Positions 1,778 through 40,700 of a stretch of DNA of 63,990 nt are shown piece by piece (position 1 is the first letter of the stretch; the number at the start of each line of letters is the position of its first letter). Under the pieces are notes generated by a model that worked only from the letters and a program-made list of their open reading frames with translations, had not been told where the DNA came from and made no database searches. The stretch covers positions 18,858,685 to 18,922,674 of the forward strand of contig JASCQW010000109.1 in the NCBI GenBank assembly GCA_030264375.1, read 5' to 3'. The position numbers were made by a program, and so were the translations under genes. This DNA comes from Carcharhinus longimanus. Taxonomy: Eukaryota.

Positions 1778-2095
1778 CATCTTTACTGATCGTTCTGATG
1801 ATTGGCAAAGACAGGGCTTCATGCGAAACAATGCAGGTATAACGAGAGCCACTGAGCCATTGCGATGTTGAAATTGCTAATTTGCTGATCATGGTGTAAT
1901 GGCCATCTGAATCCATCAGTCCACCTGAGTGTAGAATTTCTGAAAATACCTGCGCGCCTCCTTTATACCAAGACACAGATATTTTTTTGGGGTAGAAGCC
2001 TTTCGACACGCAAACAATTGTACTGCCAGTCTGCTGGGAAATTCCCCTGGAAGGTGCGTAATGGACATTCACTGAAGGCGGTGTTGATAAAATGG
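1778..2095 (-). CDS. Gene A exon 3, C1-set Ig constant-type domain
   Basis: PPSV...IVCVSKGFYPKKISVSW...SQWLSGSRYTCIVSHEALSLP; 318 nt, phase 1-1, ttcag/gtagg. Confidence 0.9.
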
Positions 2096-5000: not shown

Positions 5001-5505
5001 TAAATATTTCCCATCACTTACTTGGTTTCACCTTCAGCGTGGTTCCACAGCCACACCAGTCATCAGCTTCTTTCTCATTTTGACAATAGTATCTGGCCGA
5101 ATCCTCCAGTTTCACGTTGTCGATTTTTAAAGTGTATTTGCTCTCACCGGAAAAACGGGGCTCGATCCCCGGCATTCGGGTAAAATTGCTGGATCCCTGT
5201 CTCCAGGACACGAGCCACTTGATCTCGGTGGAGCCAGGTGGTACATAACCCCACTTGGTAAGGAGATTGGTCTGGCTGGTTCCACACTGGAGTGTCACCG
5301 ATTCTCCCTCCTGACTGAACACAGTGGTGGATGGTATGTGTAGAGCAGTGTGGGAGACAAGTGGATCTGAAATGGAAAAAAAGAGATGGGAACTGTTCAG
5401 GAGAATTCCAGTGAGGACAATGTGAAGATGAAGACAATGTAGGGAGCTTGGCTCTTTACCCGTCTGGAGGAGAATCAGAAAGAATGACCAAAACATCCTT
5501 TGCAT
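1778..5505 (-). CDS. Gene A: non-rearranging antigen-receptor-like IgSF gene (leader + germline VJ domain + C1-set domain); 3' end unresolved or off-window
   Basis: Exons 5505-5460 (leader MQRMFWSFFLILLQT; alternative ATG 5511), 5366-5022 (V) and 2095-1778 (C1). All introns are GT-AG and phase 1, and the exons join in frame. About 50% aa identity by eye to gene B V and first C1. Confidence 0.85.
2787..3200. repeat. ~39-bp minisatellite (ccatctgtaccagcttcaccccattggctctgccc) interrupted by a palindromic element; further units at 3985-4080
   Basis: Repeated units visible at 2787-2875, 3102-3200 and 3985-4080. Confidence 0.7.
2879..3100. mobile_element. Short palindromic Penelope-terminus-derived element
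   Basis: tctcacaacaccaggttaaagtccaacaggtttatttgg... and its reverse complement lie within ~180 bp. The same sequence forms the termini of the element at 55.9-57.5 kb; fragments also occur at 1-115, 24664-24731 and 39907-40020. Confidence 0.7.
3200..3965 (+). mobile_element. CR1-type LINE 3' fragment
   Basis: Degenerate RT C-terminus and CR1-like 3' tail. Confidence 0.7.
4355..4655 (-). mobile_element. HE1-like tRNA-derived SINE inserted in an older repeat (4190-4810)
   Basis: Reverse complement of ggtggttagcattgatgcctcacagcaccagggac..gattcccaat (A/B-box-like head). Confidence 0.7.
5022..5366 (-). CDS. Gene A exon 2, V-set Ig domain with fused J-like G strand
   Basis: EGESVTLQC...KWGY...RFSG..YTLKIDNVKLEDSARYYC...WCGCGTTLKVKP; acceptor tttcag, donor gtaagt. 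Confidence 0.9.
5460..5505 (-). CDS. Gene A exon 1, signal peptide (46 nt)
   Basis: Hydrophobic MQRMFWSFFLILLQT+G followed by a GTAAAG donor; 93-nt intron; aligns with the gene B leader. Confidence 0.8.
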
Positions 5506-7479
5506 TTTCATCTGGGTGGCTGCTTCCACTACACGCCGATGAGAAGCTCAAGTGCAGTTTTGTTCCCCAGAGGAGGATTTAGGTCATGTACTTCCTTCTT
5601 CTTTTGCTTTTATCAGCTTTGCAAGTTAAAAGTTGTGAAGATTGCCTCTAAATCTGCAGTCAACACTGGATAGAGACCTTCTGATCTCCACCCTTTCCCA
5701 CAAACTGCTTCCTGGTGTCAGAAATATCTCGTTAGCAACAAGAAAACTGGAGACATTTGGATTTGTCGACCTGGTCTTGTTAAAGTGAAAAGGGTAAACG
5801 TGGAGACTTAGTTCAACTACATTGCAAGAGCAGGATACTGGGAAGACAATTTGAGTTTGGCAAGTTCTCCAGAGAAAGAGTGATCCACACTTAAATGAAT
5901 TCTCAGGAAAGTCCTGGTACTGTCTGCAAAAGAAGGTTATTTTTAACTTCGGTAGTTTTGCCGAATTGGCGAAATTATTCACTAACCGAAAGGGAAAGAT
6001 AACCAGTTTCTTGCAATACTGAGCCACTAATAGAATACGAGAGTCAGTGTCTGGATATGTCCTGTCAGGAGTTTTCACATTTTTCAGTGTTAGATATTCC
6101 ATGTTATTCCAAAACTTTCAGCTGTGAATTAACTTACTGGGCATCTGTCATAAACAAATTTTGTTGAGTGATTGCAGGAAATTGCTCCATAAGATATAAG
6201 ACTAATACTTTTAACTATTTACTTTAAACATATAGATTGCCACAACTACATTAAGAAAGTATAACTTTGTTTATTTACCTAGAACATGATTTATGTTAGA
6301 CTGGGTGTGATCTAACAACAACATTGTATAGTTACCTTTAGCAGAATAAAGTGCTTTGCAGGAGCAATATAAAATTAAATTTGACAACAAGCCACCTAAG
6401 GCAATCTTAGGGCACAAAGCAAAATGCTCGTCACTGAGGTGACATTTAAGAATCATCGAGGAGGAGGAAATAAAGTCGAAGAGGATAGAGATTGGACAAC
6501 TAAAAACATAGCTACCAGTGTGATGGAGTGATTAAAATCAAGAGGCCTGCATTAGATGAGTGCAAACACCAAGGAGCTTTATGAGTCTGGAGGAGATTAC
6601 AGAGATATTGCTGGGCAAGGCCACAGAGGGATTTGAAAACATGGATGAGAATTTTAAATTTAAATTGCTTGACCGCGAACCAATGTCAGTCAGCAATTAC
6701 AGGGGTGATAGGTGAATAGGATTTGGTGCAAGTTAGGTCATGAGCAGTAGAATTTTGGATGATCTCAGGTTTACAGAAGTCAGTTACACTCAGAATCATG
6801 GCACAATGTGTAGTGGGGAGGTTGTGCTCTCTCCCCAACTTGCACTGGGCCCAATGGTTGATATGGTGCCTGTTAACCAGGTCCACACCAACAGTTGGTG
6901 CCGATGGTGGAGAGTGCAAGGTTCCCCATGATCTGTGAGTGAGGGAGTGGTTTCTTTGGCAGACTTGTGGGCTAGGGTCAGGAGGACGCAGTCAGAAATA
7001 TGGTGAAGGAGCCACTGAGAGTGGCCCAATAGGTAAACTTGGGAACCAGTACTAGCTGCTATGGATTGATGAAGACGGAAGGGATAGCATGGAATACCCT
7101 GAGTTCAGGATGCCCCAAGACACTGAAGATGCAATTTATGGTTTGGATGGTAAGCTCACTTGTGTCTCATTTGTTTGAGTGAATCAATCAACAGGAGTGC
7201 CACGGCTTGGGACACTTCAGCTTGGAGATGAGCTCCCAACATGTTGGAAATCTTTTTATATGTTAACTTTTTTGAGCACAATGAACACTTACTGAACTGG
7301 AAATTTAGTCTGCTTCTGTTCTGCAATACACCTGGAAAGCTAGTTAAGCCTTATTTTAAGAATCCTTACCAGTACATGTTTAGCTACCTTCTTTTGGTAA
7401 ATTGCTTGCGTACATTGTCAAAAGCTTTTTTTTGACAACAGTGTTAACCATTGTGCCACTGTGTTGCCCTAGTCAAGGT

Positions 7480-9500
7480 GTAAAAGTGGAGGAGTGGGGG
7501 TGGGAAGAGAAATAAATTCAATACTATTACTGGAGAAAAAGCATGAAGGAAACTAATGGGACTAAATGTCAATAAGTCCCCAGGACCTAATAGTTTGCAT
7601 CCTAAGATATTAAAGGAAGTAACTACAGAGATAGTGGATGCACTTGTAGTAATCTTCCAAGAATCTTTAAATTCTGGAAAAGTCCCAAGGATTGGAAAAC
7701 TGCCAATAACACCCTTATTCACAAAGGGAGGGAAACAAAAACAGGTAACTATAGTCCTGTTAGCTTAATGTCTGTTGATGGGAAAATGTCCATTATAAAG
7801 GACATCATTTGTGCAGAGCATTTAGAAATACATAATATAATCAAGCAGAATCAGCATGGCCTCATGAAGGAGAAATCACGTCTGACAAAATTATTAGAAT
7901 TCTTTGAGATGGTAATGAGAAAGAAAGATAAAGTGGAACCAGTAGATGTAATATACCTGAATTTCCAAAAGGTGTTTGCGAAGGTACTGTATGAAAGGTT
8001 ACTTAATAAGGAACCCATGGTGTTGACGGTAGTATATTATCATGGATTGAGTATTGCCTGACAAATAGAAGGCAGATGGTTAGAATGAGAGGGACGTTTT
8101 CAAGATGGTGACCTGTAACTAGTGGAGTGCCACAGAATCAATTCTGGGGCCACAATCATTTATAATATATATTCATGACTTGGATGAGGGGAGTGAATGT
8201 ATTATTGTGAAGTTTGCAGATGACACAAAAACAGGTGAGAAGGCAAGTGATGAGGACGACACAAAGAATCTGCAGAGGGTTATAGACGGGTTAAGTGAGT
8301 GGGCAAAAACTTGGCAGATGAAATATAATGAAGGAAAATGTGAAATAGCGCACTGGCAAGAATAAAGGAACTGAATATTATTTAAATAGAGAGAGGCTGC
8401 AGAAAGCTACAGCACAGAGAGATTTGAGGGTCCTCATGAATAAATCACAAAAAGCTAGCAAGCAAGTTCAGCAGGTAATAGGGAAGACAAATAAAATGCT
8501 GGCCTTTATTTCAAAAGGAATGGAGTATGAAAACAAGAAAGCTTTGCTAAAGCTACACAAGGCACTAGTTAGACCACTTATGGAATACTGTGAACTGTTT
8601 GGTCCCCTTATCTAAGGAAAGATACATTGGCATTGGAGGCAGTTCAGAGATTGATTCTGGGTACGGAATGCTTATCTTGCAAGGAGAGATGAAGTAGGTT
8701 GGGCCTGGACTCATTGGAATTTAGAAGAATGGGTGGTAAATATCTCTTATTGAGATATTTAAGATTCTCAGGAGGTTTGACAGGGTAGATACTGAGAGGT
8801 CATTTTCTGCTGTGGAAGAGTCTAGAACCAGAGGGCATAAGCACAGATTAAGGGGTCACCTGTAATGAGAAGGAATTTCTTCTCTTGATGGAGTTTAGAA
8901 GGATAAGGGGGCATCTAACTGAAACTTACAGAATACCGAGAGGCCTAGATAGAGCAACATGGAGAGGATGTTTTCAGTACTGGGAGAGACTAGAATTCAC
9001 AGCCTCAGAGTGAAGAGACATTCCTTTAAAGCTGAGATGAGGAGGAATTTCTTCAGCCAGAGAGTGGTGAAACTGTGGTACTCATTGCGATAGAGAGCTG
9101 TGGAAGCCATTGAGTGTCCTTAAGACAGAGATAGGTAGGTTCTTGATCAATAAGGGGATCAAGTGTTACGGGGAGAACTCAGGAGGATGGGGATGAGAAT
9201 CATATCAATCATGATTGAATGGTGGAGCGGACTCCATGGGCCAAATGGTCTAATTCTGCTCCTATCTCTCAGAGGGTAATGAACCTGTGGAATTCTTTAC
9301 CGCAGAGGGTTGTAGAGGCTGGGTCAGTAAGTATGTTCAAGGCTGAGATGGACAGATATTTAATCAGTGAGGGATTCAAGGGTTATGGGGATACAGTGGG
9401 AAAATGGAGTTGAGGATTATCATATCAAATCAGTCACGATCTCATTGAATAGCGGAGCAGACTCGATGTGCTAAATGGTCTACTTCTGCTCCTGTATCGC
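7480..9500 (+). mobile_element. Decayed CR1-type LINE RT region (two or more nested 3' ends) in the gene A/B intergenic spacer
   Basis: KSPGPNSLHPKILKE, QHGLMKEKS.LT.LLEFFE and KFADDTK motifs, with frameshifts and stops. Confidence 0.85.
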
Positions 9501-9635
9501 GGAAAGCAGAACCATTCATGCTGATATAGCAGAAAGGAAATTCAAGAATCACCCTCCCTTGAGCCACAGAACCTCACTTGAATTTCCCAGTCAGGCTGTG
9601 TCAGGCTAAGCTGAACTGGGCAAACCGAGCTGGAA

Positions 9636-9681
9636 ATGCAGGGGATGATCTGCACCTTTCTCCTGCTCGCCCTGCAGATGG
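9636..9681 (+). CDS. Gene B exon 1, signal peptide (46 nt)
   Basis: MQGMICTFLLLALQM+G|gtaagc; 113-nt intron. Confidence 0.85.
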
Positions 9682-12600
9682 GTAAGCAACAACCTTACTG
9701 CTTCCCGCCCCCCCCCCCCCGCCAAAACAAAATGTTTCTTTCCTCCACTTGTTCCCCATTTGCTTGAATATTTCTGTCTGCCTTTACTTTACAGATGCGG
9801 TGTTACCTAACTCTAATTTGAATATTCAGCAGGCAATTGTGAACGGTCGAGAGGGAGAGACGGTGAAACTGGGGTGCATAAGCAGCAGAAAGGAAAATGA
9901 TAGCCTGGTGCGTTGGGGTTATGTACCCGTTAACACTACACAAATCAAATGGCTGGTGTCCTTGAGGCCGGGATCTACAAATTTCACTCGAGTGGAAGGG
10001 ATCGAGACCCGTTTCTCCGGAACCAACGAGACCAACTTAACCTTAAAAATCGATAACTTGAAACAGACGGATTCAACCAGATATTACTGTCAGAGTGAGC
10101 TTAGCGAAAACTGGTGCGGCTGTGGAATGGCCCTGAAAGTGAGAGCAGGCAAGTGGAAATTCATTCGGGGGAAATAATGACTGATCTCAAATGTTAACCC
10201 CACACCCGGGGGAGGTGTTTCCCCGTGTGCTATCTGTAAGGGTGTGTTAACTCTCTCCAAACAGCCAAGAGGGAATTTGGTTGATGAGCCCATCTACTTA
10301 CTGTCAGCACCTCGCAATGTGGCAGCTCCCCCGACTGACTCCAGCAACCTGCAACAGTTAGTCATAAACCGAATCACGGGATAGTTATTGCTCAACCTTC
10401 GGTGGTTTTAGGAAGCAATTCACTCTATAAGAGTAATCAGTTCCACACATCCAATCTTCATTGGATGCTGTATTAGTTTAGGTGTGTTCTTGTTATTGTT
10501 GTAGCTTGGGTCTTTTCAATCAGCGACTTAGTTGTATTTTATCTGGGACATATTAATGGTCTACATCTTGGTGTGCAGGAGACAATTTCATAGTTTACCG
10601 ATGATATAAAACTCAGAAGTATTGCGAACTGTAAGGAGGACCATGTAGGACTTTAAAAGAACACAGACAAGTCGGTGGAGTGGGCGGATAGGTGGCAGAT
10701 GAAGTTCAATGCAGACAAGTGTGAAGTGAGGTACTTTGGTAGGAAGAACTTGGGGAGACAAAACTAAATAAGGGGTAAAATTCTAAAAGAGATGCAGGAG
10801 CAGAAAGACAATTTTTATTATGCACTTGTGGGACATAGTGGATGACCAGCATTTATTGCCCATGCCTTGTTGCCCTTGAAGGGCAGTTGAGAGTCAAACA
10901 CATTGCTGTTGATCTGGATCATATGTAGGCCAGACCAAGTAAGACGGCAGATTTCCTTCCCGAAAGGACATTAGTGAACCAGATAGGCTCGTTTGAGAAT
11001 TGACAATGGTTTCATGGTCATCAACAGATACTTAATGCCAGTTTTTTCTTTATTGGATTCAAAATCCACCGTCTGCCATGGCAGGATTCGAACCCAGGTC
11101 CCCAAAACGTTAACTGAGTTTCTGGATTAATAGTCTAACGATAATACCACTAGGCTATCACCTCCCCAAAGACCTAGGCCTTTCTGTGAACAGATCATTG
11201 AAGATGGCACGACAGATGGAGAGAGCCATTAATAAAACATATAGAATTCTGGGCTTTATTAATAGGAACATAAAATATAAGAGCAAAAATGTTATGCTGA
11301 ATTTATATAAGATATGATTTAGACCTCACCTGGAATATTGTGTATAGTTCTGTGCACCACATTATAGAAAGGATGTGAACACATTGGCGAGAGTGCAGAA
11401 ATGGCTTACAACAATAGTTCCAGGGTTGAGAAACCTCAGTTATGGGGATAGACTGGAGAAGTTGGGACTGTTCTCCTTAGAGCAAAGGCTAAGAGGATAA
11501 TTGATAGAAATGTTAAAAATCATGAGAGAGTTGGGCAGAGTAGATATGGAGAAATTGTTCCCATTCATAAAAGGATCAAGAATGAGAGAACACAAAAGAA
11601 GAAAAAAAATTTTCATACAGCAAATGGTTTGAGTCTGGAATTCACTACCTAGAATTGTGATGGAGACAGGTTCAATTGAACTTTTCAAGAGGGCAATAGA
11701 TGATTATTTGAATAGAAGTGATATGCAGGGCACAGGGAAAAAGCAGGGGAATGGCATCAATTCACAATGCCTGTTTGGAGAGCCAGTACAGACACAAGGG
11801 GCCAAATGGTCTCCTTCTGCACCGTAACAATTTTGTCATTTTGTGAGGCAATGGTGTAAAGCTCTTCCAGAGAGCATCCTGGGTTGAGTGTCCTCCTTGT
11901 GCACTAGAATTCAATGGCCAAATGTAGACATTAATACCCAGTCAGGTAATATCATCAAAAGCATCAACATCTGAAGTGTGCACACAAAAGTTAGAAGAAT
12001 TAAATAAACAAACCAATCAACAGAACAAGCACCAAATTAGACTTATTTTAGCCACAGCTTTAAAATTAGGGTTAGAAAATATAATGGCAAAATATAGCAA
12101 AGCTACTCACACAATGATATAAGCTTGTTCATTGTTAATGTTACAATAATGGGAAATTCAGCTAACCATTCCTTATCTTCTGACCTCAGCCATCATGCCT
12201 AGAGCACCTTCAGTTTATCTCTTGCATCCATCTCCTGAGAAGATGTCGCAGCAAATTGTCAGCAAACTTGTTTGTGTGGTGAGCAATTTCTACCCAGAAG
12301 CTATCTCTGTGTCTTGGTACATTGGCAACACCCAGCTATCTACAGGGATTTCCACTTCGGGCATACTGATGGAATCTGAAAACAGTTACACGACTATCAG
12401 TGAACTGGTAGTATCAACCTTTCAGTGGGTCAGTGGACTTCGTTACACCTGTGTTGTTTCACATAAAGCCCTGTCTTCTCCCATCAGAAAAATGATCAGT
12501 ATTGACAGTAAGTGAAATAAATATGTTTATTTGAAATCTCCTACACGTTAATTATCAACAGCTACCTTTTAATTTAAGAATGCAGAGATTAATACCAGTT

Positions 12601-15600
12601 AGAGAGCAAGATTCTCTCAGGGGACTCCTCTACAACTTGGCTGGCATTTTGGTCTATCTTATTTTTGCAAAAAATATACGTTAGTAGTAAAATATCTACA
12701 AAAATACTACAAACATTTCAAAATGGCCATCACACAAAGTGCAATAATATGTGTTCTCTACATAAATCACATTGCACTCTGAGGTACTTCAGTACAGTCA
12801 AGGAAACATTTATTTATTGTGTCACAAGTAGGCTTACATTAACACTTCAATGAAGTTGCTCTGAAAATCCCCTATTCGCCACACTCCGACACCTATTTAG
12901 GTACACAAAGGGAGAATTTAGCATGGACCTAACCAGTACATCTTTCAGACTGTGGGAGGGGACCGGAACACCCAGAAGAAACCCACGCAGACACAGGGAG
13001 AATATGCAGACAGCGACCCAAGCTGGGAATCGAACCTGGGTCCCTGGCGCAGTGAGGCAGCAGAGCTAACAACTGAACAACCGTGATGCCCCACAATAAA
13101 GGATGGGTTTGTATGACAATCAACAATGGCTTCATGGTCATCAATAGAGGCAGCAGTGCGAACCAGTGTGCCATCAAAACCAAATAACCTTATCTGTCAT
13201 GCACAGGAATAAAGCACAAGGTTACATGTACAAATTAAGGACAACATAAAAAAGAGAATGCAGGAAGAGCTTTCTTCCTGAAGAGTGGCAGCACGTGGAA
13301 TACATTACTGGTGCGTGGTGGAATAAGAAACATGCATGAGTTTTAGGAAATTACAGGACAGTTCCTTGTCAACATATGGGATTGAGGGATGTTAAAAATG
13401 CACCATAGGAACATTAAATTGGTAGATAGATGGACCCAAGACCTTTTCTTGCTTGGATCTGTTATTATGTTACTATGGCATAGAAGTCGTCTAGAAAATA
13501 TTGTTTTAGTATTTATACCAATATTTAGAATTTGAATAATTATTCAAACAAATAAGACTTATTTTCTTAAGATTTCACCAGGAACTATTCTCATTACTGT
13601 TTGTGGAATTTGTGTGAAAATTAAACACCACATTCATCAACAAATGCCTTCACTGATTCTGAAGTGCTTTGGGATGTTCTGAAGCTTTGGTATGGAAACC
13701 TAAGTTCTGAATTCTGCAAAATATGACTCTGAACATTAACTGTCTCTATTCATTTAGATCCAATTCCACCATCTATCTATGTCTTGCCACCAACCTCTGA
13801 AGATATTGTTATGGAGAAGACAGCAACAATTGTGTGCCTGGCTGTTGGATTTTATCCTGAAAGTATTTTCTTTAGGTGGCTGGTTAATAATCAGGTTAAA
13901 GAAGCTTCCAGTTCGCAAACCTTTCCTCCAGTTCGAAATGCAAACGGGAGCTACACTTCCAGAAGTGAGTTAACAGTTGTTGTGGACAAGTGGGAATCTG
14001 GCTCCGTGTTCACCTGTGAAATTCAACATGTTTCGCTCTCCTTTCCTGTAAGGCACAGTTTGAGGAAAAGAAATGGTAAGGACGTTGCAATCTGATTGAC
14101 TTTATTTTCTCCATATATCCTAATTAACATTAAATGTCCTTAAACAACAGACAGCGTCTTACAAGCTTCTTCCAAAATTTCAATTCCTCTTTCCTACCAA
14201 ACCCTTCAAAATGCTTTCATTTCCAAAAGGTCTGAGTCCACTTAGACATGGCATCCTCCTCCTCTTTCAGGTACAGTGCCCTAGGAGGTTGTTGGTGACC
14301 ATGGACTTCCATTGGACTGGCCTATGTTTATGCTATGTTAATGCTTGGCAATATACTGAAGTGGTTTGCTATTGCCTTCTGCAGTGTGACTGACCAGGAA
14401 ACTCTTTACTGCCTGCAGTCAGATCTATTGGAAGGATTTACAGGCTGATAATGAACTTGTTTGGTTACAGTATGCATGAACCTTTCATGGCCATCAAGCT
14501 CTGAAATGGAACATGTACCTGGAGCTTCTAGCCCAGAAGTAGGGATGCTACCCACTGCACCAAAGTACTTTGCTAAGCATGGAATACCATTCCAACATCT
14601 GAGCAGAATTGTTAAATTTCTGTATCTGATAGAAAGACAACCTAAAGAGAAATCATGTGTCCCGTTAAAGCTCTTCTTGTTGCTATATGGTTTATAATTC
14701 TTCTCTTGCTAACATTAGTAAAGAAGTAGAGGTAAATAAGGTTTAAAGGAGATGTATGAGGCAAGTTTTTTACACAGTGGATGGTGGATGCCTGGAACTT
14801 GCTGCTGGGGGTGATAGATACAATAGTGAGTTTTAAGGGGCATCTGGACAACTACATGAATAGGATGGGAATAGAGGGATATGGCTCCTGGAAGGGTAGG
14901 GGATTTTAGTTCAGTCGGGTAGCATGGTTGGTGCAGGCTTGGAGGGCCAAACAGCTTGTTCCTGTGCTGTAATTTTCTTGGTTCTTTGTTCTGAACAGTG
15001 GGGATTGTGGATACAAATTGCTACTTGTCTATATTAAACAGACTATATTAGCAGTTTCTCAAGACACAACATGGAGATGCCATTTTTTTGACTTGAAGCA
15101 GATAAGGAGCAGTCATTTAGTAAGCTGACTAGACTCGGTAGATGAATGGACAGTATTTCCATTCTCCCATCTATTTATCCTTTTGTCTTAACAAAATAAA
15201 GGTAGCTTTAAGGGATTGAAATGNNNNNNNNNNNNNNNNNNNNNNNNNNNNNNNNNNNNNNNNNNNNNNNNNNNNNNNNNNNNNNNNNNNNNNNNNNNNN
15301 NNNNNNNNNNNNNNNNNNNNNNNAAATATTAGAAATAAGGTATAGTTTTTAGTGGGTTTAATTTAATGTTTCTGTGTAAAAAAAAGGGTAAATCTATAGT
15401 TAGATTCCTGCTGGACAAAGGTGTTTGTAGATGTGGGGGTTTTGGTTTCAATTCAAACTGCTTCTATTGTGCTTAGAGAGATTATGGCATGAAAAGTAAA
15501 CAAGGTAGTTATTTAACAACCAAGGGCCCTTTTAAGCTAGAAAGAATTTTTGGGTTTAATTTTAGCTGCATATATTGCAGTTGGAAATAGGTAGTGAAGG

Positions 15601-18600
15601 GGAAGGCACCTCTCAGTGCTGCTAGCAGCAGTTCGTTTAGAAGGTTGGAGAGGGAATATCTCTATTAGCTTTGCCAGAAGGCGGCCATACCATAGAGTAA
15701 TAATTCAGAAAACAAGTGCAAAGAGCTAAAGTCCAGTTAGTTAGGGAATCTCAAGGGATGAAAAGAAGCTTCCAAGAAGCCTGAGGTTAAAGGTATTAGA
15801 ATAGAGAAGTGTTCAGTAAAGACAGACAGACTGGAGAAGAGCAGTGAGATGCCAAAAGGATATCTGAAGTGATTTTCAGGTTTGTGAAACATTGTTACAG
15901 TTTGGGAGACATTATTAGAAATAATCATGAAAATTAGTGGGTGGATCCTGGAGTTTGTGTAAGATGTGTCTTCTGTTGTATTGCACAATACTCCAGAGAT
16001 CAAAGGCTCAAGCATTAAGTTGCTACTTGTATTTTTCAGTTTCCACCTAAGCAGGAGGAAGTCTCAGAGGAAGCTTAATAATCTGATTCCAAGATTAGAT
16101 GTTGGTCAGCAAGTGCATCTCAAGCATGAATGCTGGGTGCTCAGCAGTCATCTGCATTGCAATGCTGCACTTTGGCATCGGTGTTGTCCAGTTAATTTAG
16201 CTCATTTGCTATCACCGCTACAATGACCGATTTCTGGTATCACAGGATGTGATCCATGCAGTTTGTAGAGGCAAATTTAAGCCAGGATTGACGGTATAGC
16301 ACCCAGTTCTGACCCAGGACCATGGAATAGAATGGATGCAATAAAAGTTATTTTGATGAGTTGTTATGGCACACTTATTTAATGGCATGGGAGATGCCGT
16401 ATCTGCATGAATACAAGATTTTACATCTTCATTCATGTCATCTGCATTGTGGGCATGGCTTGAAGATGGTCAATTTGGCAGCATGATACATCATTCATGA
16501 TCAACGGCATCATGAGAAGCAAGTTTGCAGGTGACAGCAAGAATGGATAATTTTGAAAAAGGTGGTCGTGGGTGACAGGAAGATATAGATAGGTTGGTGA
16601 AGTGGGCAGAGCAGTGGCAAATGGTATTTATCCCTGATAAGTCCCAAAGTGACACACTTTGGAAGAAGTAACAAGACAAGGGTAGATTTAATGAATGACA
16701 GGACATTAGGAAGCTCAAAGGAACAGATGGATCTTGGGGTACTTAGTCACAGATCCTTGAAGGCAGGAGAGCATGTGAATAGCATGGTTAAGAAGGCATA
16801 TGGCACACTTGTTTTTATCAGCCCTGGCATGGAGTATAAGAAAAAGGAGGTAATGTTGGAGCTGTACAGAACATTGGTTAGGCCACAGCTGGAGTACTGT
16901 ATGCAGTTCTGGTCACCTCACTCTAGGAAGAATGTGATAGCATTAAAGGGGGTACAGAGGAGGTTCACCAGGATGTTGCCTGGGATGGCGCATTTGAACT
17001 ATAAGGAGACACTGGATAGGCTAGTGTTGATTTCTCTCAAGCATAAAAAGGCTGACGGTGTGTAAGATTATGAAGGGTATGAGCGGGGTGAATATGGAAC
17101 AGCTGTTCCCGTTGGTTGAGAGGTCAGTCACAAGGGGGCATAGTTTTCGGGTAAGGAATTGGACATTCAGAGGAGATCTGAGAATTGTTTTTCACTCAGA
17201 GGGTGGTGGGAGTCTGGAATGCACTGCCTGGGGATGTAGTGGAGGCCTAAAACCTTACAACCTTCAAAAAGTATTTGGATGACCACTTGAAACATCATAA
17301 CATTCAAGGATGTGGAACAAGTGCTGGAAAATGGGATTAGTGCCGCTTTAGTGGTAGTTATTGTTGGTGCAGACTCACTGGGCTAAAGATTCCTTTCTGC
17401 GCTGTATGACTCACCTTCATCTCTTTCAGAATGGCTTGAATGTCACGGGCTTCCTCTTCCTCAGAGGTTGGAGCTCTGCCTGTGGCTTCGTTGTTATCTA
17501 GTTGAAGACTCCTCCACTGTGCGAATGTTGTGCAGCATGCAGCATGCAATAACAATTCTTGAAACCCTTGCTGGAGAATATTGGAGAGTTCCCCCTATCT
17601 AATAGAAGCATTGGAACCTGATCTTTCAAATCCTAATGGCCTGCTCAATGTTGTTCCTGGTGATAATATGGCTGCTGTTGTAATTTTCTCTACTGCCAAT
17701 TATGGGTTCTTAAAAAGGGCTGTTATCTATGTTCTGAGGAAGTAACTCTTGTCCCTTAAGGAGTAATTCCCATACCTGGGTAGGTCGCTAAAATAGATTG
17801 GGGAGTTATGAATTCTTTAGTGTGAAGGACTCATGGTAGTTGCCTGGGAAACTTGCACACACTCATTATGGTCACAAACCACCTGCACGTCGATTGAGTG
17901 GAATGACTTACAATTCACGAAGGTGAGTTGAGCTTTTAGGGAAAACATGAGTGGAGTCAATGATGCCCTGCACCCAGAGGAAACCGTCAATTCTGACAAA
18001 GGCTGTGGCTCAAAATCCATGGCCAAGCTAATAAGTTCTCCCACATGAGCCTCTCCATCCACAATCACATACTGTTATTCTCACCTGCAAGAGCCACTGC
18101 TTCGTAACAAAAAACTCAGCCAGTGTGTTTTACCCACTGTTAGAGTCATCAGGTTGTAACTGCAATGCACCCCAATATTAACTGCTCACCACATCCTGGC
18201 TCTCGAGTTCTGAATGTCTAATTGATTCCGCTTTATTGCAAATTTATTGATGCTATGTGACCAGGATACACTCTGCCCTCTGTCTTCACTTAGTATGTTT
18301 TAAAATGCATTTGATCTGATGCATGTGATAAAGCTGTAACTATTGGTTTAATCTCTTATCTAATGATGTGTTCCTGTCTCTGGTGTAGATGATTATATTC
18401 AGGAGCCTGTCATCCACCTGATCTCTCCCCCTCTTGACGCAGCCTCTGCAAGGCTAACTGTTGTAATAAGTTGTTTGGTGTCGGACTTTTATCCTGCTGC
18501 TATCTCTGTGACTTGGAGAAATGAGAATGGGCCAGTGGATACAGGAGTGATGCAGTTTGCAGTGGCTTTGGGCAGTAACAGCACCTACCAGACAGTGAGC

Positions 18601-20302
18601 CAGCTCACCGTGCCAACAGCAGAGTGGGAGAGTAAATACACTTACTGGTGTGTGGTGAAACATGTGTCTCTTGGACAGCCGATGCTGAGAGCAGTCAGCA
18701 AGGATCTGGGTAAGGTCTACATTTGTGTCCTTGTATGTATACAAGTATCTGAATGGGAGGTTGAGGTGCCTGTGTGTAAACGGTGAGGTTTGCAAGGTGA
18801 GTTTCAGAATGTTTGAGTTGATGGGGTTTGCGAGTGTGGTTGGTGTGCGTGTAGTTGGGGCAGGGATGGTTTTGTGGATGATGCATGATAAGGGATGGAA
18901 GAGTTAACAATTCATTGCTAACCTGGGCCCCATGAAAATAGCTCTGGGACCATTTGTACTTTCTGTAGAAGTCTGTGGTTTGAGAAAAAGGACTTTCAAA
19001 GCAGCAGAGGGGGAAGCAGCTGCTGATCAAGTGTGAATCTAACTGTTTCATGGTGTGAGTATTAAATTGTAAAGATCAGTTTAGGATATTGTGTGGTGCA
19101 GTGCTGATGTCCCTATTTCTCAGCATGAAGCTTTGGGTTTAGGTCCCTCTTCAGGACTTGATGGCCATGAAAGATATGTCAAATATGGTCAGACAGGTCG
19201 ACTATCAGCCTGTAGATCCTGCCAATGCACCCACTAATAGTGGGTGGTAAAAGCGGCATAGGACAGATCCCTACTCACCCATACCAGAGAAGACAATGGC
19301 AAACCATTGGATTGGTTATTATGCTTGACAATGGAAGTCAATGGTTACAATATCCTCTTAGGCCATGGTACCTGGAGGAGAAGGAAGATCAAATTAAAGC
19401 CAGTTTAATATATTCCTCTACCAAAAAGCCTCACCACTTATTCCTCAATCAAGAAATTATTTAATTCCTATCATAACTTTGCCCTGTTTAAAAATAGATC
19501 TATTGCCTCCTTTTCTTAAAAGCAATGAAGTCCAATGGAAACATGGGAATGATGGCTCCGCTGTGGACTTTTGCTGTCGTGGGAGGCTTACTTTTAATTA
19601 TCGCTGCTGCTATTCTCATCTACAAGAAAACCACATCTTCCACTCGCAGCACGATAGGTGAGATTGCTTTTATTGCCCTTTGTGCATAGTTGAAACATTG
19701 GCACAATTTAACACAAGTGTTGTACCACCACTTCCTGTAAGGACTCCATCCCATTGTCCCAATTTCTCCACCTCTGTTGTATCTGTTACAATTATGCTAC
19801 CTTCTGAAATGGACACGTCTTTGTTTTTCCTGAATTGAGAGGTCTGGNNNNNNNNNNNNNNNNNNNNNNNNNNNNNNNNNNNNNNNNNNNNNNNNNNNNN
19901 NNNNNNNNNNNNNNNNNNNNNNNNNNNNNNNNNNNNNNNNNNNNNNNNNNNNNNNNNNNNNNNNNNNNNNNNNNNNNNNNNNNNNNNNNNNNNNNNNNNN
20001 NNNNNNNNNNNNNNNNNNNNNNNNNNNNNNNNNNNNNNNNNNNNNNNNNNNNNNNNNNNNNNNNNNNNNNNNNNNNNNNNNNNNNNNNNNNNNGCCGAAG
20101 GGCCTGTTTCCCGTGCTGGGTTGTTCTTTGTTCTTTGTATTTATAAATTATTGTAATAACGTTCAGCGAATTACAGTTTCTTCCTATGTTTCCATTTCTT
20201 AACACAGCCAACTTCAGGAGGACGTTAAGCCTGGGTACACGACAGGAATCCATCTACCAAAATGTCTATTATAAGGTACTTGGACCACAGTCGCATGTTT
20301 GA
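9636..20302 (+). CDS. Gene B: non-rearranging antigen-receptor-like membrane receptor, leader-VJ-C1-C1-C1-TM-cytoplasmic Tyr motifs (~528 aa)
   Basis: Exons 9636-9681, 9795-10148, 12190-12507, 13758-14075, 18389-18709, 19523-19657 and 20208-20302. All junctions are phase 1 and join into one open frame of 1587 nt including the stop. Confidence 0.85.
9795..10148 (+). CDS. Gene B exon 2, V-set domain with fused J-like strand
   Basis: EGETVKLGC...RWGY...RFSG...LTLKIDNLKQTDSTRYYC...WCGCGMALKVRA; acceptor ttacag; the donor is CAG|GCAAGT (GC-AG intron). Confidence 0.88.
10560..11830 (+). mobile_element. CR1-type LINE fragment, with another repeat inserted at ~10810-11170
   Basis: WQMKFNADKCEV-like and RPHLEYCV.F..PHYRKDV-like remnants. 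Confidence 0.7.
12190..12507 (+). CDS. Gene B exon 3, C1-set domain 1
   Basis: APSVYLLHPSPE..LVCVVSNFYPEAISVSW...QWVSGLRYTCVVSHKALSSP; 318 nt; ctcag/gtaagt. Confidence 0.9.
12810..13092 (-). mobile_element. HE1-like tRNA-derived SINE
   Basis: Same family as 4355-4655. Confidence 0.7.
13758..14075 (+). CDS. Gene B exon 4, C1-set domain 2
   Basis: PPSIYVLPPTSED..ATIVCLAVGFYPESIFFRW...NGSYTSRSELTV...WESGSVFTCEIQHVSL; 318 nt; tttag/gtaag. Confidence 0.9.
16530..17410 (+). mobile_element. CR1-type LINE 3' fragment
   Basis: ORF 16649-17065 contains LYRTLVRPQLEYCMQFWSPH..VQRRFTRMLPGM. Confidence 0.85.
18389..18709 (+). CDS. Gene B exon 5, C1-set domain 3
   Basis: EPVIHLISPP..VISCLVSDFYPAAISVTW...STYQTVSQLTVPTAEWESKYTYWCVVKHVSL; 321 nt; tgtag/gtaagg. 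Confidence 0.88.
19523..19657 (+). CDS. Gene B exon 6, transmembrane segment
   Basis: AMKSNGNMGMMAPLWTFAVVGGLLLIIAAAILIYKKTTSSTRSTI: an uncharged TM followed by KK. Pyrimidine tract plus aaag acceptor, gtgaga donor, phase 1-1. This frame is not in the ORF track. Confidence 0.8.
20208..20302 (+). CDS. Gene B exon 7, cytoplasmic tail with Tyr motifs
   Basis: ANFRRTLSLGTRQESIYQNVYYKVLGPQSHV* after a strong acceptor (tttcttaacacag). An extra exon in gap 19848-20093, or use of a donor at 20276, cannot be excluded. Confidence 0.65.
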
Positions 20303-34793: not shown

Positions 34794-37700
34794 TTACTCC
34801 TGAATGAGTTGCTGCTGCTTTTCTCTCCAGTAATCCATTGCTTGCTTGGCCAGTGTTTTCTTTAAAAGTATAGCAAAAAAAATGTTAAATAGTAACACGG
34901 ACATTGCCACAGAAAACTCTCACCTTGCCTGGTTGAATGACGACAAGCAGTGTCAGTGAGTTATAGTGCACCAATCAGTCAAATTCTGCTTTTATTACAA
35001 ACGTTCATGATAAATTTTGCAGTAAAAATAAAAATGCCTTATGAGCATTTACACAGTGACCTAGGAATCCTGATCCACAGCAAAATGCAATGAAGATTGC
35101 ATCATATTTGCTTATATAACCCCTAATGCAATGCAATGAACCAGATTTTGCTAAAAAGGCATACAAACAAAGCAGGTAGCTATTAAAACATAGATAGGCC
35201 AGCAAATTGTACGAAAGATGACTTATTCCATAAACTGAAAACTACCACCAGTTTCTGGCTGATTTGTACCAGTTCACTTTAAGCTCATCACTTGCTTAAC
35301 CTCCCATAATTTTCAGAGTTTCTATTTCCACGTTAATTGCCAGTAAAACTCAAACACAAAGTTAAGACTAAAAGAAAACACTGCGGATGCTGGAATTTTA
35401 AACAAAAACAGAAATTGCTGGAAAATCTCAGCAAGTCTGACAGCATCTGTGGAGGTGGAAAACAGACCTTACATTCGTCAGAGCTGAAGACAAAGAAAAC
35501 AGGACAAGATTTATACTGTAAGGGCAGAACAGAGGTGGGGAAGTATAATTGACAAAGATGTAATAGACAAAAAGACAAAGGGAATGTAAATGGTGGTAGT
35601 TAAGGCTGGGAATGGTGCTAAAAGCAGCCCATGAAGCCCACCTTTTCAGATGAAACACCATTTCACATGCACCTCCTTTAATCTGCTTTATATTCGCTGC
35701 TCCCAACGTGATCTACTCTACATCAGAGACCAACGCAGACTGGGTGACCGATTTGCAGAACACCTTTGGTCCATCCACAAGCAGGACCCAAACATTACTG
35801 TCGCTTGCCATTTCAACACACCATTCTGTTCTCTTGTCCACATGTCTCCCATGGCCTGCTGCATTGTTCCAGTGAAGTCCAACATCAATTGGAGTAACAG
35901 CACCCCACCTTCCGATTAGACGCTTTACAGCCTTCCAGAATTGAGTTAAACAACTTCAGGGCATGAACTCTCTCCTCCACTTCCACTCCATTTATTTCTA
36001 TCTTATTAATCCATTTGTATTACTTGCATCATTTCATTTGTCCACTTCTTAAAAATCTCCTTCTCCATTGTGTTCTGCCCCTCTCCCAAGGGAATGCCAC
36101 ACGCCTCAGGTGGTCCTTTGACACTCTGCACCCTTTTCCTGCCATTTACACATTCTAATTGCTTAATGGGCTGCTATTAGCACCATTCTCAAGTCTTTAC
36201 TCCATTTATGTTCCTTTTTTTCTGTCCATGACATCTTTGTCAATTACACCCCCCACCTTACAGAATAAATCTTGTCCGGTTTTCTTTGTCTTCGCCTCTG
36301 ACGAAGGATTATCCAGACCTGAAACATTAGTTCTAGTCTCTCTCCACTGATGCTGTCAGACCTGCGGAGATTTTCCAGCAATTTCTGACAAAGTCTAGTA
36401 ATTAACAATGCAATGATCCTTTTAATGNNNNNNNNNNNNNNNNNNNNNNNNNNNNNNNNNNNNNNNNNNNNNNNNNNNNNNNNNNNNNNNNNNNNNNNNN
36501 NNNNNNNNNNNNNNNNNNNNNNNNNNNCTTTTAATGATGTAATAATTATTAATGGTTGCCAATCAACATCACTTGCAAAGGAATAAGCAATTAAAAGTTA
36601 CCTCAAGATGAAAACCTTTAGAGTTAAAAATATCTAATTTGAGATGGCCTTTTCTCTTTTACGTTTCCCAATCCAAGGTTTCCCTCACTTGATGTACCTG
36701 ACTTGGCACTGAATTCACCCACCCTAATTCACTTTCTCAGCCCTTCCACTGCATCTTTCTCAATCCTTCAATCTCTTTGATTAAAGAGAAGAAATACTTT
36801 GCCTATTGTTAATCAAGATCCCAGATGGCCTGCTGTCCTTGTCAAATTATCAGCTTACACTTCAAGCAATTGTTTAGGCAATTTTGCCTAAATATGCAAT
36901 TGTAAATATAATTGCCCATGAGCTACTGCAACAAAAGCAGACACACACACATATGTTTCAGTGCATGATGAGATATCTATAATTATTGCTCATTTTTCCA
37001 TATCAATATAGAATAAAAACTGCTCAATTAAGCTGCTCAGTTTAACTCTTGTTGAGTTCAATACTGATAATCTAAGTGGAAACACATTTTCTAAAAACTA
37101 TCTCACCAAAAAATGTGTTGCTGCAAAAAACAATGCATCAGCGATTTAATGGTTGTCTCAGTCTTCAAACTTTCATCTTCCACTTAATAGGATCACACAG
37201 ATGGGCTGAAATACTTTATTTTTCACATGAATTACATGCACTATTTGACCCTTCCCCTTCTGACAATACATAACTCCACACTTGGGCTACCTAGAAGAAA
37301 CGTTCCACATTTTGAAACTGCCTGTTCTTATCGCCCGGCTTAGATTGCATGACTAAAGATAGAAATTGGAAACTATTGGAACTTTGTCTTCCTTATTCTG
37401 AAAGCTAAGCTTCTTCAAAAAGGGATGCATGTGGAAAGAAAGAAAAATCTACTTCCCTTAAAATTCAGACTTACCTTGAGTCTCTGATAATGATCAACGG
37501 TGCCACAATGAGTCTGCTTCGCTGTCTCTTCACTTGTGTAGAAGAGACAGCAGAGTTTGCAATAGTAGCCAGTTTTTGGAACCACATAATCTAACCCTGA
37601 AAGAGAGTACAATGCTCTATTAGCTTTCTGATCATTACAGTGCGAGTACTTAAATATTGCTGAAGCAGACACTGCAAATATTATTCCTGGATATGTTGCA

Positions 37701-40700
37701 CAGCGATGCAAAGCACACTGGTACAGAATATATAGAAGGAAAAAAGTTAAAACATAATGTAGGGTTCAGATATTACAGGCTGTATACCAGCTTACAGAAA
37801 TTACAAATATGCAGAGTATTTATTAATATCTACAGAATGGCAGGACCAATGTAATGTGCTTAATCAAGAAGCATGCATTTTCCATTAAAAATGCAAGCCA
37901 CGGGATGATGTGGTACCTCAGTTTACAAAATATTTAAGAAGTACCCACACTGATGCCTGACAGATGATGTACTGACATTAGTATTGAGCTTTATCAAACA
38001 CTGTTAATTACTCATTGTTTGACAGCATTTTTTTTGTTGTAAAACTCAATGGGTCCAATTTTACCATCACGTTGCACCTGTTTTCTGGCACGAAAACTTG
38101 ACAACGTAGGACATGAAACGAGTAGCGCAATCCGTATCCACCTCTCTGCCGGTTCCCCCTTTACCAAGGCCCAAAAATGGCCTTGTATGCATTTAAATAG
38201 ACTTAATGGGCTGCATGCCTAACTTTACCAGCACTTGCCCCTTCACCACTGTGTTTGCCCTTCCAGAATCGGCATGAAACAGACATACTCCATAGGAGTC
38301 TGATTCAGGCAGTTAGTAAAGAGGTAGGTGCCGAGCATCCGATGGCTCGGCGCTTGTGTGTGTGTGTGCGTGGGAGGCATTATCCAGCCTGCGAGGGATG
38401 TGGCAGGGGAGTGGAGGTACCGAAGGTTCCAGCTGCATTAAGCCCCGCCTACAGGCTTGTGAAGCACAATTCAGAATCGCTGATATTTCTGCAGGCAGAG
38501 CACGGGGGGAAGGAGATTGCCTGAGAACGAGTCTAAAAATTGGGTCTGAAACACTCCCAGTTTCAAGTCCACCCAGCATTTAGAATCAAGATGATAAATT
38601 AGGGCCCTTGTCTCAATTTGAACTATGAAGAAATTGCTTAAAAGCCTGGAACAGCTATGATACAAGCCCTGCCTCAAATTTTGGATGGGCAAGTTGAACT
38701 TTCTGGATCAAAAACAACTAATATTTGGCCATTGCTTCTTAATTAATCTGTTACTTAACCTATTCAACGAAGAACCTATGACTGAGAAACAATACCGAGA
38801 GTCAGCTAAGTAGATCTACAGCTACAAAATACATAAATCAGTAGCGACAAAGGACCAAAATGTTTAGTCCTCTTAAATTTAGGATTTCTACTGTGTAGTC
38901 CGGTTCCTGCCTGGTGACAGTGCCGTTCAAGACACACAGGTGCAAGAATCACGAATATTGAATTTGGTAGCTAATTAGTCTTAGTTAAGTTCAATTTTCA
39001 CTCTGGAGAAAAGGGCTTTACCCTCAAGGTCACTTTCTGAAGATAAACTGCAACTGATCCAACAAGCTGTGCATGAGCCAGGGTTTTCAGTTTAAAACTT
39101 GCCGAGCCATAACCTTATCCTCAATCAACTTTATTGCTGGGGGATCACAAGTTGATAAATGTATCAGCCATGACCTCTGCCAGTCTTCCAGGAATGTACT
39201 AGACGTTGTTAAAGAAAAATGGTCTCTTTGCAAAGAGATTGCAAGAAAAACAAAATCATGAAAACTGAACAGATGCAATGCTATCTTTACAAGGCATTTA
39301 ATAGAGCCACATAAGACATCATAAGCCACAAGAAATAGAAGTTTGAGTAAACTACATGGCCCTTTGAGCCCATCCGCCACTCAATCTGATCATGACTGGT
39401 GTTCTTCCTCAACTCTACTTTCCCATCTGCTCCCCAAATCCCTTCATTCCCTGAAAGTTCAAAGATCTATCTATCCCAGCCTTGAATATATTCAATGTTG
39501 GTACATCCACAATCCTGAGTAGAGAATTCCAAAGGTTCATAACCCTAAATGGAGAAAATTTTCCTCATCTCAGTCCTAGATAATCAACTCTTATCCTGAA
39601 ACTCTGCCCTAGTTTTCTAGGCCCTGCAGACAGGGGTCAAATGTCAAGCTCCTTCAGAACATTGTCTGTTTCAATGACATCACCTCTTCTCAATTTCATA
39701 GAGTCTGCATCTCAGAACCCAATCAATTCTACCTTTGCTCCAATGCCTTAAGTATATGTCACCAAAGGAGTGACAAATATCCCCATCCTCAAGATGGAAG
39801 AGCTTAAAACATCAGTGTACAGATAAGGTTGAAGCGTTCAAAACAATTTTCAGCTCAAAGTGTCGAGTGGGTGATCCATCTTGGCCTCCACTGGAGGGCC
39901 TCAGCAGAGTAAGAAGTCTCACAATACCAGGTTAAAGTCCAACAGGTTTATTTGGTAGTAAATGCCACTAGCTTTTAGAGCGCTGCTCCTTCGTCAGGAC
40001 CTGACAAAGGAGCAGCGCTCATCAACAGTGCTATCATCTGCTCACTGATGCTCAGTTAGGGTTCCACCAGGGTCACTCAGCTCCTGACCTCATTACAGCT
40101 TGATTTAAACAAGAACAGAAGAATTGTACTCCAGTCGTGAAGTGAGTGTGACTGCTCTTGACATCAAAGCAGAATTGATTCAGTGCGGCAGTAAGCTCCA
40201 TCAAAACTGAAATTAATGGAAATTAGGGGGAAAAACCACCTGCTGATTGGAGTCATACCTAACACAAAGGAAGATGGTTGAAGATCAATCATCTCAGTTC
40301 CAGGACATTACTGCATGAGTTCCTCAGAGTAGTGTCCTAGGCCTAACCATCTTAAGCTGCTTCATCAATAATCTTCCTTCTGTCATAAAGTCAAAAGTGG
40401 GGATGTTCATTGGTGAGTGCACAACATTAAGCACCATTTGTGACTGCTCAGATAGTGAAGCAATCCATGACCAAATGCAGCAGCGAGTAATATTCACACC
40501 ACACAAATGTCAGGTAATGACCATCTCTAACAAGAGAAAATCTAACCATTGCCCATGATATTCAGTGGTACTTTCATCACTGAATCCCCCACTATTAACA
40601 TGCTAGAGGTTACCATTGTCCAGAAACTGAACTGGACTAGCCATGTAAATACTGTGGATACAATCGCAGGTCAGGATCGAGGAATTCTGCAGCAGATAAC

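Follow-up and report, generated by a model that had tools for sequence, protein, structure and literature searches.

The window analysed here, a stretch of 63,990 nucleotides of the Carcharhinus longimanus genome, contains two genes that are oriented head-to-head and divergently transcribed, A on the minus strand and B on the plus strand, with their start codons 4.1 kb apart. Both genes are intact, with all exons open and joined in phase 1, and the sequence of the interval between the two start codons (5512..9635) is likely to hold a shared promoter region. Each gene carries one copy of the motif WCGCG, which closes a single-exon VJ (V-set) domain. A six-frame scan revealed exactly two copies in the window, one on the minus strand (5044..5058, read from 5058 to 5044) and one on the plus strand (10112..10126); the coding DNA pattern of the motif gave 2 matches against a mean of 0.00 in shuffled sequences, and 0 of 100 shuffles reached 2. 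The sequence-only reading from which this work started had noticed the motif in both paralogs, and the scan bears this out.

Gene A follows the layout leader, V, C1, C3 and transmembrane (TM) segment, with a 15-residue tail that has no tyrosine. The coding part of its leader exon (5460..5511, minus strand) is supported by spliced contigs, with a 5' UTR extending to about 5710; the VJ exon (5022..5366, minus strand) matches the Pfam V-set at 41 bits, has PDB entry 9DMX as its top fold match and is present in spliced contigs, and the C1 exon (1778..2095, minus strand) is supported by Pfam C1-set and contigs. The other exons lie to the left of the window, also on the minus strand, and are supported by contig joins: the C3-type exon at L011:4161-4481, the TM exon at L011:3001-3138, and the last exon from L011:1497 down. 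Leader, V and C1 are spliced together in contigs of runs X1, X2 and X6, and leader and V in X4; contigs of 1131, 979 and 1001 bases (X1, X2 and X6) continue from C1 directly into C3, and the joins of C3, TM and last exon are also present in contigs. We considered a hidden C2 exon at the 100-N gap just left of the window and rejected it; gene A has no C2, because the contigs join C1 to C3 and the models of three species lack a C2 as well.

The tail of gene A ends in TETGRL, without tyrosine, and its TM segment has no charged residue. In the bamboo shark, the A-type model P0074 has a longer, tyrosine-bearing tail, whereas the last exon of gene A stops after GRL. Another frame of this exon resembles the P0074 tail, so gene A may once have encoded a signalling tail, since lost in this lineage. 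Directly after the gene A stop, the contigs contain 13 extra bases. In the C3 domain of gene A there is one additional Cys, within an N-C-T sequon; it is kept in four species and absent from B. The catshark isoform model P0003, in which an A-type V exon is fused to a LINE-like reading frame of many copies, is probably an annotation artefact.

Gene B follows the layout leader, V, C1, C2, C3 and TM, and ends in a cytoplasmic exon with the sequence SIYQNV. All of its exons are on the plus strand. The coding part of the leader exon (9636..9681) was obtained by exon reading; the single-exon VJ (9795..10148) matches the Pfam V-set at 35.8 bits, has 9DMX as best PDB match and is present in contigs. 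The C1 exon (12190..12507) and the C2 exon (13758..14075), the latter without counterpart in gene A, are each supported by Pfam C1-set, contigs and the tree of C domains, and the C3 exon (18389..18709), whose protein is 91% identical to that of A C3, by Pfam C1-set. The TM exon (19523..19657, exon reading) encodes a hydrophobic span without a charged residue, and the cytoplasmic exon (20208..20302), recognised by its frame and by the tail of the catshark ortholog, encodes SIYQNV (20249-20266) and YYKV. Contigs of X2 show V, C1 and C2 spliced together, and those of X1 show V and C1; the TM and tail exons are predicted from the genome, their joins being absent from the RNA rows listed. At the end of the V exon there is a GC-AG splice donor (10148-10149, CAG/GCAAGT), and the contigs splice there. 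The tail is 64% identical to that of the cloudy catshark ortholog, in which SIYQNV is replaced by SVYQNV. We take SIYQNV to be ITIM-like, as it fits the ITIM consensus known to us. It also fits YxNx, described as a GRB2/GADS motif in the accessible part of PMC11599192, and the tyrosines of gene B do not have ITAM spacing.

In both genes, V and the J motif occupy one exon with phase-1 splice sites, and the contigs splice V directly to C1. No RSS nonamer was found near either V, and one chance heptamer lies inside the coding sequence of A V. The leader exon is split in A and B, and the splice from leader to V is confirmed for A by contigs. Both genes are spliced in public contigs from runs of two studies, and both appear in the same runs; the runs are presumed to be RNA from two organisms slightly different from this genome, and their depth was not used for ranking genes. 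In cloudy catshark the pair is found under neighbouring locus tags (scyTo_0006167/8), as it is in bamboo shark (chiPu_0010574/5), and A-type models are present in Mustelus, small-spotted catshark and whale shark; word-limited or cluster-limited searches returned no A/B ortholog from batoid, chimaera or bony fish. Over 531 bp that take in the intron flanks, the C3 exons of A and B share 88.5% DNA identity, which points to gene conversion, whereas the V and C1 exons share 70-73%.

The J region of gene A reads YYCQNEKEADD-WCGCGTTLKVK and that of gene B YYCQSELSEN-WCGCGMALKVR. When set in the FGxGTxLxV register, one Cys falls in the F/W slot and the other at the x of GxG, just as had been read from the sequence, and the aromatic residue is shifted one place earlier. 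The residues are Cys122 and Cys124 of the A precursor, in the G strand of the V domain, and Cys123 and Cys125 of the B precursor; in gene A, the motif lies within the predicted strand E105-113 of the modelled V domain. Of 9 J-like V exons taken from this genome as outgroup, none has a Cys at either position. The motif had been called unusual, but it is not so within the UrIg family, where both Cys are found in 16 of 18 V domains, a count that excludes the redundant isoforms P0003, P0004 and P0006-P0008. Conservation in orthologs, on which the earlier interpretation depended, is complete, as the pair is kept in all 9 A/B-type V domains; it is also present in 7 of 7 UrIg2-type domains, and the UrIg sequences (n=2) read WSGCG, that is, they have the second Cys only. 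The motif glycines vary (S, A), and the second Cys is invariant across the 18 domains. The Cys pair is an already known hallmark of the shark UrIg antibody-like proteins, and the cysteine motif alone is nothing new. It had also been stated that each C1 domain has exactly two Cys, which holds for the window's four C1-set exons, and that the motif contains the only non-canonical Cys, which does not hold, as gene A has a third Cys in its last C domain (that of the N-C-T sequon) and a juxtamembrane Cys. Catshark A has an additional Cys in C1.

The structure of nurse shark UrIg2 (9DMX) is the best single-domain PDB sequence match for the V of A (E 1e-14) and also the best PDB match for the V of B (E 1.1e-13); two multi-domain antibody constructs outscore it for A only by summed domains. 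A fold search with the AlphaFold2 model of the gene A V (pLDDT 80.7) placed 9DMX at ranks 1 and 2 (TMq 0.77), and the 9DMX G strand reads FCSCGTTLKV at the motif position. In the crystal, the UrIg2 ectodomain forms a homodimer linked by disulfides, with the non-canonical inter-chain bonds A112-B112 and A114-B114 between G strands; the V domains make contact through their A and G strands, unlike Fv, the G strand lacks the usual bulge, and four domains span about 155 Å (PMC12227049, cited here and below from its accessible sections). Inter-chain V-V disulfides, the main proposal of the sequence-only reading, are thus strongly supported by homology, since the equivalent UrIg2 residues are bonded, although the UrIg family had gone unrecognised. 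By analogy, it is likely that the WCGCG cysteines of A and B form inter-chain V-V bonds; both the disulfides and the V-V dimer through A and G strands are carried over from the paralog UrIg2. A and B do not have the C1-C1 cysteine of nurse shark UrIg2, and neither does catshark UrIg2.

In the V tree, the UrIg family including A and B forms one clade (100/99), with 17 family rows against 16 outgroup V, whose labels (NCR3-like included) are our own assignments; the 33 rows omit one partial family sequence and 17 of the 33 extracted outgroup V exons. UrIg (99/92) and UrIg2 including batoids (100/99) are both recovered, and A and B fall outside both. A and B group together at 94/91, just under the starred level, as sister to UrIg2 at 98/92, and the gene A sequences do not form one clade. 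Nesting of A/B with shark UrIg2 alone was rejected (p-AU 0.022); placing A/B with UrIg, or as basal, was not (p-AU 0.30 each), so the tree is compatible with more than one branching order of UrIg, UrIg2 and A/B. The C domains of A and B are C1-set by Pfam, and in the C tree (32 rows, with 5 batoid rows omitted and no UrIg2 C3-type row) the domains cluster by position with those of UrIg and UrIg2 (C1 95/93, C2 96/87); the A/B C3 domains group with UrIg C3 (97/92), those of A and B from this genome together. The features considered for membership of the UrIg family also include a homodimer linked by G-strand Cys disulfides and non-lymphocyte expression (liver, gill).

The UrIg of this genome is on C81, where its V matches nurse shark UrIg V (PMC12227049, fig. 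S2) and its V-C1-C2-C3 exons lie on one scaffold with matches to MHC class I, proteasome and PBX. Taking UrIg to be MHC-linked, secreted and about 80% identical in V across species, we ruled out A and B as UrIg orthologs, as they have TM exons, show 36-40% V identity to UrIg and coexist with the true UrIg on C81. A UrIg2 C1 exon was found on the 918-base contig C40700 (L028); it is 65% identical to catshark UrIg2, as compared to 36-37% for the C1 of A and B, and it groups with UrIg2 C1 at 100/99 in the C tree. The C1-C1 cysteine of nurse shark UrIg2 is absent from this exon. Nothing else of UrIg2 was found in this assembly; its V exon did not turn up, and single-protein queries returned no other V exon of the family, so that the V exon of UrIg2 is either unassembled or was missed. 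UrIg2 and the A type are separate within the same species, as XP_038644097.1 (published UrIg2) and XP_038651300.1 (A type) in catshark, and XP_048449493.1 and an A-like model in whale shark; the published UrIg2 accessions of catshark, whale shark and sawfish (PMC12227049) form clusters apart from the A/B orthologs. We ruled out A and B as UrIg2 orthologs, as they lie outside the UrIg2 clade, have no linkage to IgH, TCR alpha/delta or PSMB5 and possess only 2-3 C exons.

The pair lies on C109 between MATR3 on the right and a CYP26-like gene on the left. MATR3 (matrin-3) exons, with RRM, zinc finger and a large first exon, are found on the minus strand at about 37400-47700 of the window and at L070:717-1790. 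The P450 gene beside gene A (L013:398-772, L014:5354-5623 and L015:3214-3747), presumably of the CYP26 family, is matched in the genome by just two further close copies, at 63% and 49%, and may be a little-known CYP26 paralog. The neighbourhood also contains DENN-domain and actin-related genes, namely DENN/uDENN exons that we take to be DENND4-like and an intronless actin-related ORF, together with two long ORFs, 579 and 503 aa in length, which are of low complexity and have no Pfam match (L079:4125-5776, L085:3701-4888, L080:3931-5667 and L084:4703-6211). Broken retroelement-like fragments with protease and reverse-transcriptase remnants, as well as many LINE remnants, occur at 51104-53201 of the window, in L014 and at L073:1605-2603. 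The annotation of the flanks covered the 290 longest of 704 non-repeat ORFs, so that short-exon genes were missed. Alpha-catenin is found on C109, 5 Mb from the A/B pair; none of the genome matches listed for MHC-I (at least 22), proteasome (at least 25) and PBX (at least 10) is on C109, and the IgH/TCR cluster, with its V, C1 and proteasome matches, is on C191, not C109. MATR3 and CTNNA1 (alpha-catenin) presumably mark human 5q31, which C109 would then resemble. The MHC paralogs listed in the accessible part of PMC10751288 do not include 5q31. An old translocation of the locus is the simplest reading.

On A and B themselves, we observed how the genes are built and spliced, that they belong to the UrIg family yet are separate from both UrIg and UrIg2, and that both Cys are conserved. 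We consider it probable that the pair constitutes a third locus of the UrIg family, with non-rearranging VJ-C1 genes for predicted membrane receptors with WCGCG inter-chain disulfides, most likely as A-A and B-B homodimers. Two symmetric inter-chain disulfides would lock the V domains G strand to G strand, in a covalent homodimer of each chain that would be formed in the ER and in which C1 and C3 would pair beneath the V domains, as they do in UrIg2. Each covalent dimer would then present a germline-fixed, two-headed surface for an invariant ligand, which, by analogy with the matrix association of UrIg, might be an extracellular-matrix or cell-surface structure. From its tyrosine motif, B might signal through a phosphatase by way of the ITIM or through GRB2 by way of YxN, and A, without tail tyrosine or charged TM residue, could serve as a competitor or adhesion partner that does not itself signal, co-expressed with B from the shared promoter region.

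A covalent A/B heterodimer through the same two cysteines, that is, a two-chain non-rearranging receptor in which B signals, appears unlikely to us. The close head-to-head arrangement conserved as a pair, the presence of A and B in the same runs and the identical register of WCGCG in both would suit it, and homogenisation of the C3 exons beyond the level of V and C1 would keep an A-B C3 interface compatible; however, this homogenisation may be a by-product of the inverted repeat. There are three Ig domains in A and four in B, such that V-V bonds in register together with two membrane anchors would require B to bend by one domain, and UrIg and UrIg2 were both reported as homodimers (PMC12227049). 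We hold homodimers to be likelier, as one domain less leaves A about 39 Å shorter than B and the two relatives, UrIg and UrIg2, are homodimers. The wider scenario, in which a third, equally old UrIg lineage outside the MHC paralogons became a paired receptor, with a signalling B and a tail-less A under one promoter region in a covalent heterodimer, is doubtful to the same degree.

That A and B are diverged, translocated copies of UrIg2 (co-orthologs) and no distinct lineage deserves little credence. The sister position to UrIg2 in the best V tree, and the WGYVP, two-Cys motif and TM region common to A/B and UrIg2, would be expected of such copies, and UrIg2 is described as fast-evolving and plastic (PMC12227049); however, the UrIg2 clade of sharks and batoids excludes A/B, nesting with shark UrIg2 was rejected, the two kinds of loci are separate in the same species, and V identity is 33-45% between A/B and UrIg2 but 47-85% among UrIg2 sequences when taken from catshark. 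A and B may still go back to an ancient duplication on the UrIg2 stem, which would be a matter of naming.

There is hardly any room for the other use of Cys-x-Cys that had been suggested, a redox-sensitive or intra-chain pair, for which the computation gave nothing beyond the spacing itself. A beta strand is predicted at these residues, and in such a strand side chains i and i+2 point in the same direction and an intra-chain bond would be strained. UrIg retains one of the two Cys, which suits inter-chain and not intra-chain use, and in UrIg2 both are engaged in inter-chain bonds (PMC12227049), so that, with V-V disulfides already demonstrated in the paralog, the redox idea is unnecessary.

The UrIg2 paper of 2025 speaks of two paralogues (PMC12227049). 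In the literature searched, the coverage of which excludes most subscription papers, we found no description of a third UrIg paralog or of the A/B locus, and in our judgement this locus has probably not been described before. The motif and its use are known, and A/B is apparently a new UrIg-family locus. A third locus of two genes must now be accommodated, whether it goes back to an old translocation or is one more ancient copy. Of the UrIg family members known to us, gene B is the first to have a motif for tyrosine signalling, and the function of the family thereby becomes testable, for instance by a reporter assay.

Among known systems, CD79a and CD79b resemble A and B in having a Cys at the x of GxG, which forms their inter-chain bond, and the Ig domain of CD79b ends in GCGTELRV. 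CD79 has one Ig domain and an ITAM, and no C1 domains. A and B do not fit this pattern, as they have 3-4 Ig domains, the A tail lacks Tyr and B lacks ITAM spacing; CD79 was absent among the 60 best PDB sequence matches. PRARP, the paired VJ-C1 receptor family of bony vertebrates, is a gene pair with joined VJ, C1, membrane anchor, ITIM-like tails and disulfide-linked dimers, but it is scarcely conceivable that A and B are its shark orthologs, as the single-V family profile matches of identified organisms are all elasmobranch and the domains of A/B cluster, position by position, with those of UrIg. PRARP, named as a joined-VJ gene in the accessible parts of PMC10751288 and PMC11599192, and NKp30/NCR3 resemble A/B as membrane receptors whose VJ is joined in the germline; in this genome, the V exons labelled NCR3-like lack a G-strand Cys and lie outside the UrIg family. 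UrIg, located in the elasmobranch MHC class III region, shares with B the V-C1-C2-C3 ectodomain layout (PMC12227049) and with A and B the non-rearranging VJ and the second G-strand Cys, but, unlike them, it is secreted only, has the one Cys of WSGCG and resides on the MHC scaffold C81. UrIg2 (9DMX; PMC12227049) has, like A and B, a single-exon VJ, a split leader, C1-set domains of C1, C2 and C3 type, a TM segment, the C strand WGYVP and the G-strand pair (F/W)CxCG, with WCGCG itself in the UrIg2 of sawfish, stingray and sevengill shark. UrIg2 has 9-11 C domains in sharks, made of repeated C2-C3 units, whereas A and B have 2 or 3, and it lies beside IgH/TCR/PSMB5, whereas A and B are two head-to-head genes beside MATR3. 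The CDR3 of A and B is shorter than that of UrIg2 and has no N-glycan site, and B has a tyrosine motif, whereas the accessible sections of the UrIg2 paper (PMC12227049) do not use the term ITIM.
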